64,000 nt of DNA from Armatimonadota bacterium. GTDB lineage: Bacteria > Armatimonadota > UBA5829 > DTJY01. Shown here piece by piece: positions 27,772 through 47,355 of this stretch. Every line of letters starts with the position of its first letter. The stretch's first letter is position 1. Under the pieces are notes generated by a model. It searched no databases and was not told the DNA's origin. It worked only from the letters and a program-made list of their open reading frames with translations. The position numbers and the translations under genes were made by a program. The stretch is taken from contig DATKXU010000082.1 of the NCBI GenBank assembly GCA_035528905.1, positions 57,838 through 121,837 of the forward strand, read 5' to 3'.

Positions 27772-30183
27772 ATGCTTCACGCATCCGAGGGCGCCCGGCC
27801 ATTCAGCTACTCGAAGACGGCGGCCTTCTCAGTGCTCGGCGTGTTCGCCTTGGCGGACGGCGCCCGGGCGTCTGAGGCCATCGAGCTTCCGGCCTTTGGC
27901 AGCTTCGAGAACTCGATCCTATGGGTGGTCTTCTTCTCCGCCATCGTCGGCATCCTATTCGGGCTGGGATGGCTGCTCAAGGTTCTGAAAGAGAGTCCCG
28001 GCTCGGCGGCCATGCAAGAGGTATCCGCGGCGGTCCAGGAAGGCGCGATGGCCTACCTGAAGCGCCAGTTCAAGACGATGATCTGGTTCGTAGCGCTAAT
28101 CACCATCGGCCTCTATTTCCTGTATAAGCCTATCTACGCGAGGCCGCAGGAAGCCGCGGTGCCGATAGGGGTTTCCATCGCCTTTCTAATGGGCGTATTC
28201 GCCTCCTACATTGCCGGCTTCGTAGGCATGTATATGGCCGTGCGCGCGAACGTCCGCACTGCGAATGCGGCGCTTTCCAGCTTCAAGAAGGCACTGGCGA
28301 TCGCATTCCAGGCGGGCGCTGTATCGGGCATGGCGACCGTCGGCCTGGGACTCCTCGGCGCGACGATCATCTTCTTCATCTTCCAAGAGCAATCCATGAA
28401 GGTTCTGATCGGCTTCGGCTTCGGCGGATGTCTGGCAGCTCTTTTCATGAGGATCGGAGGCGGCATTTACACGAAGGCGGCCGACGTCGGCGCTGACCTC
28501 GTAGGGAAGATCGAGAAGGGGATCCCCGAGGACGACCCCAGGAACGCGGCGACCATCGCGGACAATGTGGGCGACAACGTGGGCGACTGCGCCGGTATGG
28601 CGGCCGATGTATTCGAGAGCTATGAGGTTACGCTGGTGGCAGCGATCATCCTCGGCGCGGCGGCTGCAGGCGCAGTCGGCGCAGGTAATGTGACGAAGCT
28701 CATCATGTATCCGCTGCTGGTTCGCGCGGTCGGAGTCATAGCCTCCATAATAGGCGTGTTCATGGTTCGAGGGCGCGACGACAGAGATATAGACCCGATG
28801 AAACCGATCAACATCGGCTTCTGGGGATCGGCGATCCTGGCGACGATTGGCTTCAGCGCGGTGAGCTACTGGATGTTCAAGGGCGGCATAGGCCAGTTCA
28901 AATGGTGGCAGTTCGCCGGCGCGAACTTCATGGGCATTGTACTAACGCTGGTGATCGGCAGGTTGACCGAGCACTTCACCGATATTGACAAAGGGCCTGT
29001 GACTGAGGCCGCATATGCCACCAGAACCGGCCCTGCCACTCTCATTCTGACCGGCTTTGCGAGCGGCCTGGAATCGAGCGTCTGGTCAATAGTGGCGATC
29101 GCCGGTGCGATATTCGGATCCTATCTGATATTCGCGGGAAATGCCGCTCTGGCGGCCTATGGAATTGCTCTTTCGGGCCTGGGGCTGCTGACCACGACCG
29201 GCTACATCCTGGCGATGGACACCTACGGCCCGATCTCCGACAATGCAAACGGAATCTTCGAGATGTCCGGCGCGCTCAGGGAGCAGGGCGAAGACTCTCC
29301 TGCCTCCAGGATCGTCGCGAAGCTCGACGCGGTGGGCAACACAACCAAAGCGCTGACCAAGGGGTTTGCGATCGCGACCGCCGTCATCGCCGCGACGGCA
29401 CTTTTCCGCTCCTTCATGGCGGACGCCAACCTGCTGGAAATCGGCCTCCACATCGAGTGGACGGAAGTCTTTATCGGATTCCTCATCGGCGGCGCAGTGC
29501 CGTTCCTGTTCTGCTCGTTCGCCATCAAAGCGGTGAGCCGCGCTGCCTTCCTGCTGGTAGAGGAGGTGCGGCGGCAGTTCCGCGAGCATCCGGGCATCAT
29601 GGATTTCAAGGAGAAGCCCGACTACGCCCGATGCGTGGCAATCAGCACCGCGGCCGCTCAGAAGGAACTTCTCGGCCCTGCAATCCTGGCTGTGGCGACT
29701 CCAATCCTGGTGACATTCGGACTGGGGTACACGGACCCTATGCGCGGCGCGGCGGCATTGGGAGGCTATCTCGCCGGAGCGATCCTGACCGGCCAGCTCA
29801 TGGCCGTCCTGCTTGCGAATTCAGGCGGCCTGTGGGACAACGCCAAGAAGAAGATCGAAGCGGGCCTATTCGGCGGAAAGGGCACTGAGTATCACAAGGC
29901 CGCTGTGGTAGGCGACACCGTCGGCGATCCGTTCAAGGACACCGCCGGCCCGGCGCTGAACCCGCTGATCAAGGTCATGAACCTGGTCGGCATCCTGGCC
30001 GCCCCGATCGCCATTGCTCCGATCGCCCCTGCTGTGAGAACTGCAATAGTGCTGCTAACCGTATTCGCACTTGCCGCGGCAGTCGCATTCAACAAGCGAG
30101 GCGGCATCACGGTCCAGGGGGAAGTCGTAGCGGAGGCGCAAACCGCGGTGGAAGACCTGCCGGAGCCCATCGAGAGCAAGTAG
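27772..30183 (+). CDS. hppA: Membrane-bound proton-translocating pyrophosphatase, K+-independent type (GNTTKA)
   Basis: 803 aa, ~16 TM; motifs GGG(I/V)YTKAADVGADLVGK and DNVGDNVGDCAGMAADVFESY; GNTTKA (Lys) marks K+-independent H+-PPases. Confidence 0.95.
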   Translation: MLHASEGARPFSYSKTAAFSVLGVFALADGARASEAIELPAFGSFENSILWVVFFSAIVGILFGLGWLLKVLKESPGSAAMQEVSAAVQEGAMAYLKRQFKTMIWFVALITIGLYFLYKPIYARPQEAAVPIGVSIAFLMGVFASYIAGFVGMYMAVRANVRTANAALSSFKKALAIAFQAGAVSGMATVGLGLLGATIIFFIFQEQSMKVLIGFGFGGCLAALFMRIGGGIYTKAADVGADLVGKIEKGIPEDDPRNAATIADNVGDNVGDCAGMAADVFESYEVTLVAAIILGAAAAGAVGAGNVTKLIMYPLLVRAVGVIASIIGVFMVRGRDDRDIDPMKPINIGFWGSAILATIGFSAVSYWMFKGGIGQFKWWQFAGANFMGIVLTLVIGRLTEHFTDIDKGPVTEAAYATRTGPATLILTGFASGLESSVWSIVAIAGAIFGSYLIFAGNAALAAYGIALSGLGLLTTTGYILAMDTYGPISDNANGIFEMSGALREQGEDSPASRIVAKLDAVGNTTKALTKGFAIATAVIAATALFRSFMADANLLEIGLHIEWTEVFIGFLIGGAVPFLFCSFAIKAVSRAAFLLVEEVRRQFREHPGIMDFKEKPDYARCVAISTAAAQKELLGPAILAVATPILVTFGLGYTDPMRGAAALGGYLAGAILTGQLMAVLLANSGGLWDNAKKKIEAGLFGGKGTEYHKAAVVGDTVGDPFKDTAGPALNPLIKVMNLVGILAAPIAIAPIAPAVRTAIVLLTVFALAAAVAFNKRGGITVQGEVVAEAQTAVEDLPEPIESK

Positions 30184-30225
30184 GGCTTGGCGCTTCGTCA
30201 TAGTAGGCATGGCTAGAAACACCGA

Positions 30226-30257
30226 GGCCGGGGGTCTTGTGATCCCCGGCCCTTTTA
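30226..30257 (+). terminator. Intrinsic terminator of hppA (GGCCGGGG / CCCCGGCC stem followed by TTTT)
   Basis: 8-bp GC stem 30226-30233 / 30244-30251 with 10-nt loop and a T-tract at 30253-30256. Confidence 0.7.
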
Positions 30258-30457
30258 TGTGCTGGACCCCCATAGTGCAATCCTGTAACGACTTGGAGTT
30301 GTACACTCGTTACATCAGAGCAGGAAAAAAGTGCCTTATGGTGAATCATCTATACAAGGGTCACATTAGGGCATGGCTGGTAGCTTGTGTAAGTACAGAT
30401 GTTTTCTCTAATGTCAGCGCCGATAACGCCGTAGTACCAGTATAGGAGGGGATACTA

Positions 30458-31525
30458 ATGCGACGCAAGGCCGCTACAAAGCCGGACGAGGCGAGCACCA
30501 CCGCCACAGCCCCCATCGAACCGGGAGGTGTGTTCATAAGCCACGTCCACGAGGACGAGCCTCTTGCCGAGGCTTTTGAATTACTTATCCACAACGTAAG
30601 CGCTGGTGTAGTCCCCACTTTCAGATCAACCGCAAAACAGTTTGGTGGGGGAATCCAATACGGCGAGGAATGGTTCCGCTGGATATGTGAAAGCGTAAAC
30701 AAGGCAAAGCACATTGTAGCTCTGCTGACTCCGGCAAGCGTAAGTCGTCCGTGGATTCTATTCGAAGCCGGCCTGGGAAAAGGAAAGTCTGATGGTGTGG
30801 TTTTTGGTGTCGGACTTGGAATTTCCCGCGAAGATGCCTATAAGGGGCCTTTTGCTGCGCTTCAAAACTGCGGCGCAGAAGAAAAAGAACTGGTAAAGCT
30901 GTGCAAGGAATTAATCGAGGGAACTCAGGCAAAACCACGTGACGAGATGATCAGCAAATGTGTTGCGGAATTTCGCGCTACGGTCGAGGCGCATTTCGCG
31001 AACCAGAAATCAGGAAAGAAGGCAAGCGAAGATCCGACCAGCGTTGCGGTCTTTCAAGCGTTGGAAGAAATGAAGCTCATGCTCCGGGATCAAACCCGAA
31101 TGTTTGAAACGGATATGCCAAGGTTTCCCAGGCGAGACCGCGACATTGAGCGCCTTACTATGGTTGTCTTTGAACACTCCGGATTGCTCGAATCTGAACC
31201 AAAACTGCACTTAGCTTTCCTCGCAGGGCTCGCTACTGAACTAGGATACTTCTTCGTAAAGCCGCTTGTCGATTACATAGTAAATTCAAAACAAGCCATC
31301 CCAGGGGAACGTCTTGATGGAATGCACTTCTTGCTGCATGATATGTTTATGCGCCTGGAACCCCGCGGCAAGATGGATCACCATTTGCTTAGAACCATTG
31401 AGCAGGCGCTTCATACACGCCTCGACCAAAGGCTCAGCTCTAAAAACACCGGTTCGCCAGGGAAGTTCACCCCCTCAACTGCCTTAAGGTCAAGGGTTGC
31501 GAAGGCCCGGAGCGACAATCCGTAA
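30458..31525 (+). CDS. TIR-domain protein (bacterial TIR NADase-like) with uncharacterised C-terminal ~200-aa helical domain
   Basis: [16 protein letters not shown] matches the bacterial TIR (D/V)FISHAxEDK box; [12 protein letters not shown] and [10 protein letters not shown] match the WxxxE catalytic-Glu region; RBS AGGAGGGG upstream; gene GC ~50% against ~63% flanking. Confidence 0.8.
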
Positions 31526-31628
31526 GACCGGGAGTTTTGGCTGCCAGGCTGCCAGATGGACATCAGCAGGAAGAAGTTACCTGAGTGGTGAAATGTATGA
31601 TCCGATCCTGCAGAGGAGGATAACCTCC

Positions 31629-31928
31629 ATGAGCTTGCACATCCACGTTAATCCCGAGCAGATAGCCGACTTTTGCCGTCGCAACCATATCCGCAGGCTA
31701 GCTTTCTTTGGGTCGGTTTTGACAGATGAATTTCGCCCGGACAGCGACGTTGATGTTCTGGTGGAATTCGAGCCGAATTACCGCGTCGGTTTGCTGCGCA
31801 TGGCCGAAATGGAAATAGAACTTTCCCGCATCATCGGGCAGAAAGCAGATATGCGGACCCCCAATGACCTGAGCAGGTACTTCAGAGATGAAGTTGTAGC
31901 GAAAGCTGAGGTGCAATATGCTGCCTAA
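31629..31928 (+). CDS. mntA: Nucleotidyltransferase-domain antitoxin MntA (minimal NTase, type VII TA)
   Basis: GS-x9-DxD NTase motif ([22 protein letters not shown]). Start set at ATG 31629, preceded by GAGGAGG; overlaps hepT by 11 nt. Confidence 0.8.
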
Positions 31929-32262
31929 AGACGATGCTATTCGTTTGCGCCATATGCTGGAGGCCGCGCAGGAAGCCGTTGCATTCACCAACAATCGAAA
32001 CAGACAGGACCTCGACGCTGATCGCATGCTAACTTTTGCGCTTGTTCACGCTATTGAGATAATCGGAGAGGCAGCTTCAAAGGTTAGTGCTGAGGGACGA
32101 TCAGCTTGTCCACGTTTACCTTGGACAAGTATTATCGGCATGCGAAACCGACTGATTCATGCGTATTTCGATATTGATCTTGACCGCGTCTGGGAAACGG
32201 TTACTGATGACTTGCCACCATTGATGGCCAAACTGGAAGCGATCATCTCGAAGAACGATTAG
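31918..32262 (+). CDS. hepT: HEPN-domain toxin HepT (DUF86)
   Basis: Rx4HxY HEPN RNase motif (RNRLIHAY); 114 aa; overlapping arrangement with the NTase gene typical of HepT/MntA. Confidence 0.85.
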
Positions 32263-33050
32263 ACTTAGGGCAGCCCTCAAAGTCCCGAATCATCCGCATT
32301 CTGCCCTAGCAGAATCAATTGTTCCAGCCGTTCCACCAGGCTGCGGATCGGGCGGCCTGCGGTATCGGGCCGGCTGGAAAGCTGCCGATACCTCTCCACT
32401 ATCTCCCGACGAACCTCCTGCGGCAAGATCGGGACTAGTATTGACTTTATCCGGTCGAAGTTGATTCCACACGGGCCGACGCCGCATTTCTCGCGGTGGA
32501 TCTGAAGGCGGGCGAACCGCGTTTGCAGGTAGACCGCCAGGTACTCCGGCTCTACATCTCTGACACGCACGAGATTGATGTGCTGGCTGATATTGCACGG
32601 CTCGTCCGAGTAGAAGACCGCCGCCCGGCCGATGCACCCTACCCCACTGTTTGCCAGAAGCAGGTCGCCCTTTTGTAGTCGGCTCCGCGCCGGATCATTA
32701 CGAGAGCCTGGTGGCACAAACCGTTCGGGTGAACGGATATCCACCCCGATCACGAAGCCCTCGCCGGTTGTGACGAGGTTCGCAGGTGTCAGCAGCCGGA
32801 CGCCGGATTCCGCCAACTCCCGTTTCCCCACCTGGCCGTAAGTCGTGTACTCGATCAATTCGCCCAAAGTGACCGCGTTCGGCAGGCCCCTCAGGAGGCG
32901 GAGGTTTTCGGTGTATTTACGGTGATAGTAGGCAGGATCCAATCTGTCGCCTGGGGACAAGATTTCCGCCGGAAAGACCACCCACGGCAGGCATTCGATT
33001 TCGGACTTGTCCGCCGGAGCCTTGGCATAGGAGGATTTGGGATTTCGGGT

Positions 33051-33178
33051 TGCGGATTGACCTACCCCCCTTCCTGCCTCCCCCCGAAGCGGAGGGAGGA
33101 GCACCTTCTCCCCTCTCCGCATCGGAGAGGGGCCGGGGGTGAGGTTTGGCTCGTCGGCTGCCGACCACTGTGCAAAAT
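33051..33178. repeat. Dispersed ~100-130-bp repeat, copy 1, inside the methyltransferase reading frame
   Basis: ~96% identical over ~95 bp to 47251-47355 (gcggagggaggagcaccttctcccctctccgcatcggagag...gaggtttggct.gtcggctgccgacca.tgtgcaaaat). Contains palindrome GTCGGCTGCCGAC and an imperfect hairpin; copy 1 has a 26-bp C-rich insertion. Confidence 0.75.
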
Positions 33179-33641
33179 CGGCGAACTGCTCGGCCAGGCG
33201 CTCAATTCCAGCCTGCCAGGAGGCACGAGATTCGAGTGCGGCGCTGAATACACGGCCCGGAAGCGCAGGATTCCTCTGGAAAACCAATACACTGGCCTTC
33301 GAAGCCGCGCCGGTGCGGTAAAACGTGTGCCGGGGAAGGCTGACAATCGCCCTGATCGCCGCGCGGCTCGAGAGCCATTCACGCACGTAGGAAAGCCGTG
33401 CGTTCGCCAGGATTCCGTCAGGCACAACCATCGCGACGTATCCGCCCGGCCTCGCAAGCTGCCAGAAGCGCTCCAGAAAGAGCACCTCGATCCGATACTT
33501 GGCGAGATCGGCGGCGTGTTGTCCATCCCGCCATATCGTGAAGTTTTCCCTGATGGCGCGAGCGAGCTGCTCGAAGTCCGGCGACGATCTCAGGCTCAAT
33601 GTGCCGAATGGAGGATTGCCGACGACCCAGTCGAAAGGAGT

Positions 33642-33684
33642 ATGGGGGTATGGGAGTGTGGGTGGATGGGAGTGTGGGTGGATG
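33642..33684. repeat. Tandem 16-bp duplication (ATGGGAGTGTGGGTGG x2, partial third) adjacent to a G5 tract, inside the methyltransferase
   Basis: Read directly: tatgggggtatgggagtgtgggtggatgggagtgtgggtggatg. On the coding strand it encodes the His/Pro/Thr-rich linker HTPIHPHSHTP. Confidence 0.8.
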
Positions 33685-34016
33685 TAGTTCTGTCCACATC
33701 TCCCAGTACGCATAAGCCGTCGCCGATGAAAAGGTTCGCGCGGCCCAGCAAGCCGTTTTCTTTCCAGGCTGCCGCCATCCGATTGTCTTTCTCGATGCCG
33801 AAAAGCCGATCTGGAGAAGTAATGCCGTGCTCCAGGGCATAGGCCAGAAAAGCACCTTCGCCGCACGCAGGGTCAATAATGCGCGGACACCGGGCATTGG
33901 AATCGAGGGCTCGGAGCATACGGTAGCACAGTTCGACTACCGGCTCGGGGGTGAAGTACTGGCCGAGCATCCTGGCGCGATCCATGCCCTGATATAGCAC
34001 AGAAACCCGCGCGTGG

Positions 34017-36029
34017 TCAACAGCCGACGCGAAGCGTCCTTACAACGCCGCCTTTCAAATCCGTGCGCATCCAGATTGCGTCGCCGGTAAACTCGAAGCC
34101 CAGGAATCGCTTGACCCTGCCGACCATCTCCTGCTCGTGGCAGATAACGAAAATGTCCTCGCATTCGGGAAGACGGATGGAAATCGCGGATATCTGTCCG
34201 GGGCGGGGTTCCGTTTCGTCTATCGTGCACCTCAGCGGCCGGACTTCCGGAACAACAGTTTTGCCCGCAGGAGACGGATAGAGCACAGTCTCAAAGGCTA
34301 TCGGCGCTACGCAAGTTCTGGTGAAAACCGCCGTGGGGGCAGGCTCGCGCTCGTTGTACTGGTAGGAAACGAATCCCAGAACAGGCGTCTCCTCCGCCTC
34401 AACAATGCGAACTTCCGCGTCATCCGACCTCACCACAGCCAAGTTCGCGGCATCAGGAACGTCGGTTCGAGCGAAACCCCTGCCCGCCGCAACTTTTCCC
34501 GGCACGAAATGCCAGAGTTGCTCGAACTTGTGCTCGCCATCGCCCCTCAGGAGATCAATCACAATCCAGTATTCCGGCTTAACGAAGAAGACCTTCCGAA
34601 TATGGGCCACGGAGGCGTCGTTCTGCGGCCCGAAGCCCTCGTCGTATGCACCTTCGGCATAGTCAAACTCCGCCGACGACACCCACCGATTACCTGGCGC
34701 AGGCGCCTTCACGACCCACCTGCTCGGATCGGTTGCTGCGCGGTTCTGGCCCATCCCATCCACGAGGATAAGATTATGCCCGCCCGCCCCATGAAAAGGC
34801 GCTCCAACGTGATAAGAGTAGCGCCCGGGATCCACAACAAGCGCCCTGCCATAGGCGCAGACCTCGATATTCAGCTTGTCTTCGTGCTGGTGCCGCTCGC
34901 CGAAGGGCCCGGCATCCATCATCAGATACAAATCCTGCGGACCATCGCCGGTTCGCATGCAAGATATCCCGGCGTAGGGGAAGAAGACGGAATCGCGCTC
35001 CCGCTCGATTTCCAGCAGAGCCTTGGTCTCCGGCGCCTTGTCCGCGCCGAGCGAGATAGCCGGCTCCACAATCCAGTAAGACGCGCTGCCCAGGTCGGAG
35101 TCGTTGATCATCGGCCAGTTTGCGTCGGGCCGCATGATGCCGGCATTGAACTGCATCATCCTCCTCAGCCCATCATAGTACTCTGCTGGAAAATCGAATC
35201 CGGGAGCGATCCGTTTCAGGACTATCGGCTGGAGGAAGTTCCAGAGACTGAGGGTATGGTAGGAGGCCGTCAACTCGAACTGAGCGCCGTCCGGGTATAC
35301 CTGTGCCGCCATTCCCTCGGACAAGCGTCCGATCGCCGCCTCGCGCCACTCCGGGGCATCCCTGAACTCCGGAAAAAGCGCGCCGACGTGCAGAAGGCCG
35401 TTGTTCTCCATAAGAGTCCAGTTGCAGGCCGTCGGGAACTTCAGCAGATAATCGGCGTGGTCGGCGAATGACTTCAGCATCAGGATCCGAGCGTCCACGG
35501 TGAAGCTGGGCGAGTTTCTGAAGAAATGCCAGGCCATCGGCCACGAGCTGAGCATCCGGATGCCCGCCTCTATCGTGCGCCAGGCCGCGCTGTCGTTCGC
35601 ACACTCCGCCGGGACAGGGTTGCTGATTACCCAGTCGGCGACGATTTCATTGAAATCCGCGGCGTATTCCTCATCCCCGGTGCGCTGATACTCCTGAGCG
35701 AGCGTCTGGAAGAAATAGTGGCGGTTCAGTACCCACGTCCACTCGCGGTCGCCAAACGGATTAGTAGCCCAGGCGATCTTGCCTTCCAGCTGAGCCGTTT
35801 TCAGAAGAATGGTGAACTTCCGCGCCAGGATTTCATCGGCTGTTGCATCATCCTGAAACACGAACAGCCTTTGCTCCAACTTATCAGAATACCAACCGGG
35901 CTGCCCGCGGGTCCTATAGTACTCGACAAGCAATCCCTTTGCCCGGTTGCAGTTCCCGGACGTCACCGCTGCCTTTACAGCCTCCAGGCCGGGGCGCTCA
36001 AGGTCCAGCAGATCAAATACATCCAGCAC
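34017..36029 (-). CDS. Heparinase II/III-like polysaccharide lyase (alginate-lyase-like N-domain + heparinase II/III domain)
   Basis: 670 aa. WATNPFGDREWTWVLNRHYFF is alginate-lyase-like; central HQHEDKLNIEVCAYGRALVVDPGRYSY resembles the heparinase II/III HxHxD region. Confidence 0.7.
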   Translation of the reverse strand: MLDVFDLLDLERPGLEAVKAAVTSGNCNRAKGLLVEYYRTRGQPGWYSDKLEQRLFVFQDDATADEILARKFTILLKTAQLEGKIAWATNPFGDREWTWVLNRHYFFQTLAQEYQRTGDEEYAADFNEIVADWVISNPVPAECANDSAAWRTIEAGIRMLSSWPMAWHFFRNSPSFTVDARILMLKSFADHADYLLKFPTACNWTLMENNGLLHVGALFPEFRDAPEWREAAIGRLSEGMAAQVYPDGAQFELTASYHTLSLWNFLQPIVLKRIAPGFDFPAEYYDGLRRMMQFNAGIMRPDANWPMINDSDLGSASYWIVEPAISLGADKAPETKALLEIERERDSVFFPYAGISCMRTGDGPQDLYLMMDAGPFGERHQHEDKLNIEVCAYGRALVVDPGRYSYHVGAPFHGAGGHNLILVDGMGQNRAATDPSRWVVKAPAPGNRWVSSAEFDYAEGAYDEGFGPQNDASVAHIRKVFFVKPEYWIVIDLLRGDGEHKFEQLWHFVPGKVAAGRGFARTDVPDAANLAVVRSDDAEVRIVEAEETPVLGFVSYQYNEREPAPTAVFTRTCVAPIAFETVLYPSPAGKTVVPEVRPLRCTIDETEPRPGQISAISIRLPECEDIFVICHEQEMVGRVKRFLGFEFTGDAIWMRTDLKGGVVRTLRVGC

Positions 36030-36642
36030 GGCCCTGCCTCCTTATGCTCTGGCATCTTAGACCTTAAACGCGGCTTGGGAACACACCTCCCTACCAACAA
36101 GAAAACGGCCGTTCCCATGGTTCATGAGAACGACCGTGCGAATGAGAATGCGATACCGGGCAGCTTGGCCGCGGTATCCAGGTCTCAGACAGCCTGGTCT
36201 ACGGGACTAGGACGGGATACTCGGAACGGCTGAATTCAGACGCGGATGCTTGGCTCTCAGGAGGGGCTCCCAATATCTCCCCGATCGAGGGACGCAAGAT
36301 CGCCACTAGAAAGGAAGACCACCGAAGGCTGCGGTTGCAACAAACACAGGACTCTTCATCAGACTGGTTCAAGGCACCGCACCAGAAGCACTTTTCCACC
36401 TGTACTTACTCCTTCCCGTTCTGCGCCAGGGTACGAGGTTAATACCCAAGGCAACAGTCTCCCAAACCTGCCATCTCTGCCCCGGCAGGCCAGGAGTTGT
36501 ACTTATGCCATCCGTGGGATGACAGAGGCACCTCACATAGAGGGGGCTGCAAGATTCATGCCAGTATTAATGCTGGCATTGAATTTCTAGCAAAAATACC
36601 GGGTAGACGTTCATGTACTAGAAAACATTTCAAAGGGGCCGG

Positions 36643-36676
36643 GGATGGAGTATTGGAGTAGTGGAGTGTTGGAGTA
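36643..36676. repeat. Four tandem 8-bp repeats GGAGTnnT (ggagtatt ggagtagt ggagtgtt ggagtaat) in the 670-bp intergenic gap
   Basis: Read directly; member of a G-rich micro-repeat family also seen at 27520, 33642 and 46262. Confidence 0.7.
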
Positions 36677-36701
36677 ATGCCTTCCCGCGGGTTGTGAGCA
36701 G

Positions 36702-36986
36702 CTAGGAATCGGAGTGCCCAGCCAGGTGGCGATGAATGTCCTCGCGCGAGATTCCCGTGATCTCAAACACCTTTTCTCGGCTCGCGGCACCGGTGACGAG
36801 CGTGACATGCGATTTCTTCACGCCCAACTGATCGGCCAGGAACTCAATGCAGGCTTTGTTCGCGGCACCCTCAACGGCCGGAGCGGTGACCTTGACACCA
36901 AGCACATCGCCCTGCCAGCCGGTGATCTGATTCCGAGAACTTCGTGGATTTACGCGAACTTTGAGGAGCGTTCTCTGTATGGACAT
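36702..36986 (-). CDS. yggU: DUF167 / YggU-family protein (UPF0235)
   Basis: 94 aa; LKVRVNPRSSRNQI...GVKVTAPAVEGAANKACIEFLADQLGVKKSHVTLVTGAASREK matches the YggU signature. Confidence 0.8.
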   Translation of the reverse strand: MSIQRTLLKVRVNPRSSRNQITGWQGDVLGVKVTAPAVEGAANKACIEFLADQLGVKKSHVTLVTGAASREKVFEITGISREDIHRHLAGHSDS

Positions 36987-47250: not shown

Positions 47251-47355
47251 TGCGGATTGCCCAAAGCGGAGGGAGGAGCACCTTCTCCCCTCTCCGCATC
47301 GGAGAGAAGCCGGGGCTGAGGTTTGGCTGGTCGGCTGCCGACCAGTGTGCAAAAT
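47251..47355. repeat. Dispersed ~100-bp repeat, copy 2 (5' leader of the DUF1559 gene)
   Basis: ~96% identical to 33051-33178 minus that copy's 26-bp insertion; immediately followed by a terminator-like hairpin. Confidence 0.75.

Follow-up and report, generated by a model that had tools for sequence, protein, structure and literature searches.

A TIR–helical cassette next to an MntA–HepT pair in the hppA/methyltransferase gap of an Armatimonadota genome

Gene content and composition of the locus

The window analysed here is a 64,000-nucleotide stretch of a contig (DATKXU010000082.1) from an uncultured Armatimonadota bacterium. A low-GC patch located immediately downstream of the pyrophosphatase gene hppA encodes a protein with a TIR (toll/interleukin-1 receptor) domain followed by the nucleotidyltransferase/HEPN pair MntA/HepT, and it adjoins a converging DNA methyltransferase gene. 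A first-pass annotation had considered these three genes as one horizontally acquired islet of anti-phage or addiction cargo, beginning after the hppA terminator. We consider it reasonably likely that the patch is instead a stack of two self-contained conflict modules that arrived at different times in one and the same gap, between the converging hppA and orphan-looking methyltransferase genes, the TIR part being a SpbK-like enzyme that degrades nicotinamide adenine dinucleotide (NAD+; NADase). The locus is found in four independent assemblies with at most two mismatches.

On the left side, hppA (27772-30183, forward strand) encodes a membrane H+/Na+ pyrophosphatase (Pfam H_PPase, E 7e-244), ends with a TAG stop codon and forms a conserved anchor outside the islet. 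Ten nucleotides past this stop codon lies the left junction of the TIR cassette (30194-31565, forward strand), a 1,372-bp segment that is missing from the closest relatives and whose ends can be placed only to within 2 bp because of a shared GC. The cassette contains an intrinsic terminator on the forward strand, with a hairpin of 11-bp stem followed by UUUUAU (30226-30251; -25.1 kcal/mol, z -3.4), then an AT-richer leader (30252-30457) with an AGGAGG ribosome-binding site (RBS) at 30444-30449, 8 nt before the ATG, a 355-amino-acid (aa) open reading frame (ORF; 30458-31525) and a 40-nt trailer. In the encoded protein, the TIR domain (residues ~23-156; 30524-30925) precedes a helical C-terminal domain (residues ~190-340; 31025-31477), and the codon of the invariant residue Glu103 is found at 30764-30766.

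The MntA–HepT module (31566-32262, forward strand), which is common to the relative L088 described below, includes a 63-nt leader with a GAGGAGG RBS at 31613-31619. The first gene, mntA (31629-31928), encodes a 99-aa minimal nucleotidyltransferase antitoxin (NTP_transf_2, E 1.8e-12) with a GSX10DXD motif at 31710-31754, while hepT (31918-32262) encodes a 114-aa HEPN RNase toxin (HepT-like PF01934, E 1e-25) with an RX4HXY motif at 32143-32166. Both have Pfam matches and share 11 nt, in agreement with the overlapping pair initially described, and the 103-nt gap between the TIR ORF and mntA displays no significant structure (fold z -1.0). The conserved right anchor is a gene for an N6-adenine DNA methyltransferase with one target-recognition domain (32277-34000, reverse strand; Pfam N6_Mtase, Eco57I and Methylase_S). 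It converges towards hepT, with its stop codon 14 nt beyond the hepT end, and is indeed frameshifted, being read in two minus-strand frames (33596-34000 and 32277-33866). All the elements initially listed could thus be located in the sequence: the TIR gene and the MntA/HepT pair, an RBS, a terminator and a methyltransferase gene split over two frames.

The compositional break is marked. The guanine-plus-cytosine (GC) content of 30190-32280 is 51.0%, compared with a mean of 59.5% (standard deviation (sd) 1.8%) for all 2,091-bp segments of the 64 kb (z ~ -4.8), and the segment of this size with the lowest GC content of the whole 64 kb (30252-32342) coincides with it. The announced drop from ~63% to ~50% is therefore borne out on the low side, while the flanks have a GC content of 60-63% (61.4% for hppA), so that the value of ~63% was slightly high. 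The deviation extends to the codon level for all three genes, the GC content at third codon positions (GC3) reaching 0.53 for TIR, 0.60 for MntA and 0.47 for HepT versus 0.714±0.042 for the 43 other long ORFs (minimum 0.608), with respective z-scores of -4.3, -2.7 and -5.8. The TIR gene had also been credited with its own AT-richer promoter-like region and a strong RBS. The upstream intergenic region (30184-30457) is AT-richer (49.6% GC) and the RBS is present, but no sigma-70 consensus occurs within 30252-30457; a scan of 29900-34300 yielded two sites versus 2.7 expected, neither of them in this leader. The leader may nevertheless contain a promoter. TTGACA-like hexamers are located directly 5' of TIR homologues in three other loci (L081, L175 and L176).

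The TIR–helical protein and the MntA/HepT pair

An AlphaFold2 model of the TIR protein, built on 35 homologues (mean predicted local distance difference test (pLDDT) of 80), displays a canonical flavodoxin-like TIR fold of five-strand beta/alpha type at residues ~23-156. A long helix comes next, and a linker rich in R/K and modelled with low confidence leads to a helical bundle. The pLDDT values are between 85 and 98 across most of residues 21-180 and dip to 59 at residues 61-70. The top Foldseek matches are nearly all TIR domains; the SpbK filament (PDB 9phb) comes first (E 8e-5, target template-modelling (TM) score 0.65 over the TIR domain), with SPARTA TIR-APAZ, plant TIRs and AbTir behind it; RUN1, RPS4 and MyD88 are also among the top matches. 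SpbK was also found with the family profile against the PDB (E 0.003), and searching the PDB with the TIR domain as a single sequence gave non-significant matches only. Besides, many homologues are annotated with TIR_2 (PF13676), for which the protein P0151 scores 31.3 bits, and NCBI has the sequence of the window protein, without any difference, under the name toll/interleukin-1 receptor domain-containing protein. Three results of profile searches weigh against a TIR defence protein: the TIR_2 score of the window protein (26.2 bits) is just below the gathering cutoff of 28 bits, there is no NCBIfam match, and PADLOC only gives a weak 'TIR-TM' match.

A conserved signature of the protein is the sequence RPWILFEAG, in which R97, P98, W99, L101, F102, E103, A104 and G105 are invariant in the 35 homologues and only I100 varies. 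A weak alignment pairs this motif with the 'RPWVKYE' of ThsB-type proteins. Residue E103 sits 77 residues past the Phe of strand beta-A, compared with ~75 residues for the mutated residue E192 of SpbK (E-x-G194) once the 24-residue tag of the PDB entry is allowed for. Based on motif and spacing rather than on superposition, E103 is probably the catalytic glutamate and the equivalent of SpbK E192. The likeness to SpbK, a single-protein abortive-infection system carried by ICEBs1 of Bacillus subtilis, goes further: both are single genes in which a TIR domain is linked to a small helical non-TIR domain, the Glu-x-Gly is equally spaced from strand beta-A, and SpbK is at once the best profile match and the best structural match. 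However, SpbK has an N-terminal four-helix bundle and a C-terminal TIR domain, in the reverse order of the window protein, and their identity (18%) concerns the TIR domain only, the helical domains (~150 aa here, 94 aa in SpbK) being unrelated. In addition, SpbK resides on a conjugative element, whereas the window cassette has no mobile-element context.

The helical C-terminal domain has no specific match to any known fold and diverges fast across homologues. When 1.84 billion representatives are searched with its profile, 584 clusters at 50% identity are retrieved. In all of them the domain is C-terminal; full-length members have 320-390 aa with the TIR domain in front, and most of the shorter matches read are pieces of this TIR–helical architecture. 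The subfamily, with its fold-unmatched helical domain, is a reasonable candidate for tests of single-protein TIR immunity.

It is unlikely that the TIR protein is rather a signal producer of the ThsB type, whose cyclic ADP-ribose isomer would activate an effector encoded elsewhere. No ThsA-like gene (SIR2, Macro or SLOG) adjoins the TIR gene, be it in the window or in the homologue contexts examined, and the fused C-terminal domain better suits a self-contained protein, although a TIR fold with a conserved Glu is common to ThsB-type proteins and SpbK itself produces N1-cyclic ADP-ribose (N1-cADPR; PMC12847820). Compared with Thoeris ThsB and further stand-alone TIR proteins of bacteria (AbTir, BcThsB and PdTIR), the window protein shares the TIR fold and the W-x3-E type catalytic region, but differs by its extra C-terminal helical domain and by the missing ThsA partner.

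For the MntA/HepT pair, regular-expression searches locate GSX10DXD at residues 28-42 of MntA and RX4HXY (RNRLIHAY) at residues 76-83 of HepT, two motifs that define class I type VII HepT/MntA pairs, in which the HEPN RNase is modified by MntA through poly-AMPylation of its motif tyrosine (PMC7641770). Besides both motifs, the window pair has in common with this type an MNT gene upstream of an overlapping DUF86/HepT gene and the association of PF01909 with PF01934. It departs from it in its NCBIfam scores, with 37.1 bits for MntA_antitoxin (NF047752) and 36.4 bits for HepT_toxin (NF047751) versus an equivalog cutoff of 60; the pair is therefore a divergent member of the type and not an equivalog. 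These low scores, like the absence of any match to a PADLOC HepT model, count against a straightforward assignment. MntA matches four PADLOC PDC-S09 models (E 7e-23 to 2e-14), a single-gene MNT-type candidate defence family, while here it clearly belongs to a two-gene pair, as the antitoxin. We regard MntA/HepT as a type VII module of the usual kind, serving addiction or stress, whose toxicity and AMPylation are predicted by analogy.

Relatives of the locus and probable order of arrival

Scanning species-representative genomes with hppA returned only distant relatives, with at most 80% identity and no shared synteny. The nearest GTDB representatives by hppA (L001 and L002, 78-80%) have nothing in common with the window beyond this gene and are uninformative. 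The closest relative, L088, came from a metagenome scan. Its hppA is 93% identical and it is collinear with the window from ~10 kb upstream to ~10 kb downstream. After hppA, L088 encodes MntA (91%), HepT (94%) and an intact 568-aa methyltransferase, without a TIR gene. In a blastn comparison, the alignment of the window stops at 30193 and restarts at 31566, both positions mapping to L088 12460/12461, and continues with 87.8% nucleotide identity over L088 12460-13964. The difference between the two loci is thus a clean 1,372-bp indel (30194-31565) that takes in terminator, leader and TIR ORF along with the 40-nt trailer. The spacer between hppA and mntA in L088 is 71 nt long and has no hairpin. 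Since the hairpin of the window is located inside the indel and is missing from this spacer, the terminator that now ends hppA came with the cassette.

The MntA/HepT pair behaves as a resident of the lineage. Between the window and L088, the ratio of nonsynonymous to synonymous divergence (dN/dS) is 0.24 for MntA and 0.08 for HepT, and their dS values (0.21-0.33) are compared with 0.44 for hppA and 0.32 for the heparinase gene. These low dN/dS ratios, together with dS values near those of neighbouring genes, point to vertical co-inheritance and function. On these sequence grounds, the pair is vertically inherited in the lineage and under purifying selection, and it is also low in GC in L088 (52.3% versus 58.1% for the L088 locus).

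More distant loci extend this picture. L089 (hppA 83%) likewise has no TIR gene: downstream of hppA come an MntA-like gene, 51% identical to MntA of the window, then a terminator, the gene of an NAD-dependent epimerase and that of the methyltransferase. The MntA-like antitoxin gene (L089 3538-3960) is followed by ~90 nt and the terminator, without HepT; apparently the toxin was lost and the antitoxin orphaned. In L110 (hppA 73%), hppA faces the methyltransferase gene across ~110 bp (L110 2126-2234), and in L018 it faces an intact orthologue of this gene across ~100 bp (L018 12485-12583). In L015, the methyltransferase gene is also intact and a GDSL lipase gene occupies the gap (L015 12323-13374). 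Neither MntA/HepT nor the TIR gene is present in L110, L018 and L015. More generally, the convergent hppA/methyltransferase adjacency persists in Armatimonadota whose hppA is only 67-83% identical, while the remaining neighbourhood is not kept. The cargo of the gap varies by genome, from nothing to a GDSL lipase gene or an MntA-only remnant with the NAD-dependent epimerase gene (L089 3443-4916).

The most parsimonious scenario from these sequence comparisons consists of two nested acquisitions, with MntA/HepT entering earlier and the TIR cassette later. The arrangement of hppA facing the methyltransferase gene would be ancestral; MntA/HepT would have been gained by the ancestor of those lineages whose hppA identity is at least 83%; and the TIR cassette would have come last, in the window lineage. 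Weighing against this order, the direction of the indel relies on parsimony across two relatives only. As regards the initial description, its horizontally acquired character stands, with a deviant composition and defence or addiction genes added to an older hppA/methyltransferase arrangement, but its single islet does not: MntA/HepT occupies the same site in L088, while the TIR gene is missing from L088 and L089. Similarly, the islet does not begin after the hppA terminator, which is itself inside the cassette. No relative was found with the same three genes at a host-typical GC content, L088 having two of the three.

A TIR gene ancestral at this site and precisely deleted in the L088 and L089 lineages appears distinctly improbable. 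It would require two independent deletions, the one in L088 also taking the terminator and leaving a clean junction, and it would have to accommodate a TIR GC3 that is 4.3 sd below host genes as well as the lack of the gene in the distant L110, L018 and L015. What keeps this possibility in the discussion is that an indel alone gives no direction and that only two relatives are informative.

Outside this site, the TIR homologue is solitary in nine other loci and has different neighbours each time. It lies next to GH32 and radical SAM genes in L081, GH32 again in L175, a fucosidase gene and unknown genes in L083, an IS200-type transposase gene and genes of amino-acid metabolism in L085, integrase, AbiJ and HATPase genes in L086, an RHS toxin island in L172, ImuB/DnaE2 genes and a relaxase fragment in L173, and ResIII helicase, Bro-N and RhuM genes in L174. 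Several of these contexts are linked to defence or mobility (L086, L174 and L172). Conversely, about half of them are plainly metabolic (L081, L083 and L085), which speaks against a dedicated conflict role. In the four loci measured, the TIR homologue is always 5-10 GC points below the host locus. As a side observation, two overlapping 81-aa ORFs without Pfam match (L083 7430-7917) are located directly 3' of the TIR homologue in L083, which is 63% identical over the TIR domain. They may form an unrelated small toxin–antitoxin-like pair echoing the window arrangement.

The metabolic neighbours raise the question of whether the TIR–helical protein could be a housekeeping or regulatory protein without any conflict role, its low GC content reflecting a family-specific composition and not transfer. 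We find this quite improbable. It is true that the family has a lower GC content than its host at each of the five measured loci, one of them the window, so that an intrinsic bias is conceivable, and several homologues do occur among ordinary metabolic genes. However, the presence or absence of the gene between 93%-identical genomes, its varied and partly defence- or mobility-related neighbourhoods and the fast divergence of its C-terminal domain are typical of defence genes. Finally, a single three-gene defence system gained together, with TIR as sensor or signal generator and HepT as RNase effector, is highly improbable: the trio is on the same strand, low in GC in all three genes and devoid of a convincing terminator between TIR and mntA, but L088 keeps MntA/HepT under purifying selection without the TIR gene, which largely refutes it, none of the nine other TIR contexts has an MNT/HEPN neighbour, contrary to the unity implied at first, and a literature search found no such three-gene system.

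Two proposed conflict modules, cassette entry and methyltransferase repeats

In the preferred reading of two stacked modules, the older one would act through the HEPN RNase HepT, held inactive by MntA through AMPylation of the tyrosine of its RX4HXY motif, as in characterised pairs. The recent one would be a 1.37-kb single-gene cassette that arrived with an upstream terminator, a leader and an RBS of its own. Judging from SpbK and further TIR NADases of bacteria, its helical C-terminal domain may sense or dock onto an infection-derived protein. This docking would cause TIR domains to cluster and form composite active sites around Glu103, and the ensuing degradation of NAD+ would arrest the infected cell (abortive infection).

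A broader proposal is more tentative and, in our opinion, somewhat doubtful at this stage: the TIR–helical proteins would be an uncharacterised but fairly widespread single-gene anti-phage family (~580 clusters at 50% identity), whose fast-evolving C-terminal domain would be an infection sensor of a new kind that brings TIR NADase domains together, and the hppA/methyltransferase gap of this Armatimonadota lineage would be a small recurrent landing pad collecting such cargo with no recognisable mobile-element machinery. Independently of this proposal, the locus documents, down to the base pairs of the junctions, how a micro defence islet was built up step by step in a phylum that has received little study, the relatives displaying an empty gap, then MntA/HepT, then TIR with MntA/HepT. 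It illustrates that a compositional islet of uniform appearance can record separate events, and that cargo can bring along a terminator which one would ascribe to a housekeeping gene. Current concepts are unchanged, since TIR effectors and HepT/MntA pairs are well-known kinds and the TIR subfamily and its C-terminal domain, although uncharacterised, are not conceptually new.

No tRNA gene is found within 15000-48000, and no further copy of the cassette exists elsewhere in the 64-kb window. Two negative results are unfavourable to the idea of acquired modules: no integrase gene is located nearby nor do mobility genes mark either module, and only short matches at chance level turned up when terminal repeats, direct or inverted, and a target-site duplication were sought at either module. 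The sole junction feature is the 2-bp GC microhomology. It suggests that the cassette came in by illegitimate recombination, or that homologous recombination in the flanks replaced the allele.

Some sequence resemblances were noted in the upstream part. A TAGG(G)CWTGGC-like motif is present three times upstream of the TIR gene (30181-30191, 30203-30214 and 30367-30378), one copy spanning both the stop codon of hppA and the left junction. Inside the cassette, at 30319-30336, 14 of 18 positions agree with the right-junction sequence AGCAGGAAGAAGTTACCT. Neither the motif copies nor this match are significant; they may be due to chance or be a trace of cassette recombination. A candidate conserved motif at the 5' end of the cassette, 'AGTAGGC…AAAC', shared by the window, L081 and L083, was discarded as fortuitous or lineage-specific after an a priori test, being missing from the next two loci (L175 and L176); likewise, aligning the regions upstream of TIR homologues revealed nothing conserved. 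A viral origin was also rejected, as the TIR protein has no relative in IMG/VR and the matches in GenBank phages and PLSDB plasmids are at the level of the TIR domain only.

Concerning the methyltransferase gene, its frameshift lies in a repeat tract (33637-33684) made of an imperfect 8/16-bp tandem repeat, GGAGTGTGGGGGGATG, in three copies on the minus strand. Inside this tract, the window lacks 10 nt relative to the intact gene of L088. The methyltransferase region of the independent assembly L169 aligns without gaps and with one mismatch. Intact orthologues have 568 aa in L088, 505 aa in L018, 494 aa in L015 and 508 aa in L089. The window gene could be a fixed pseudogene or, alternatively, an orphan methyltransferase gene under a phase-variable repeat-length switch. 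No restriction endonuclease gene is found beside it, and the gene is thus not part of an intact restriction–modification pair.

The same gene contains a 92-bp repeat (33087-33178), lying in frame between the regions encoding the catalytic and target-recognition domains, with a 94.6% identical second copy 14 kb away (47264-47355). Around it, the window (33060-33270) is non-homologous to the matching 199 bp of L088, and the L018 methyltransferase has other repeat-derived peptides in the same linker. The 92-bp repeat looks like an element of the miniature inverted-repeat transposable element (MITE) kind that is tolerated in a variable linker. Finally, repeat-derived peptide motifs such as 'NPKSEIRNPKS' and 'TPLLQYSI' recur in ORF translations from several Armatimonadota loci, including the window at 36611-36808 and both the N-terminus and the linker of the L018 methyltransferase, which suggests that short interspersed repeats are abundant in these genomes.

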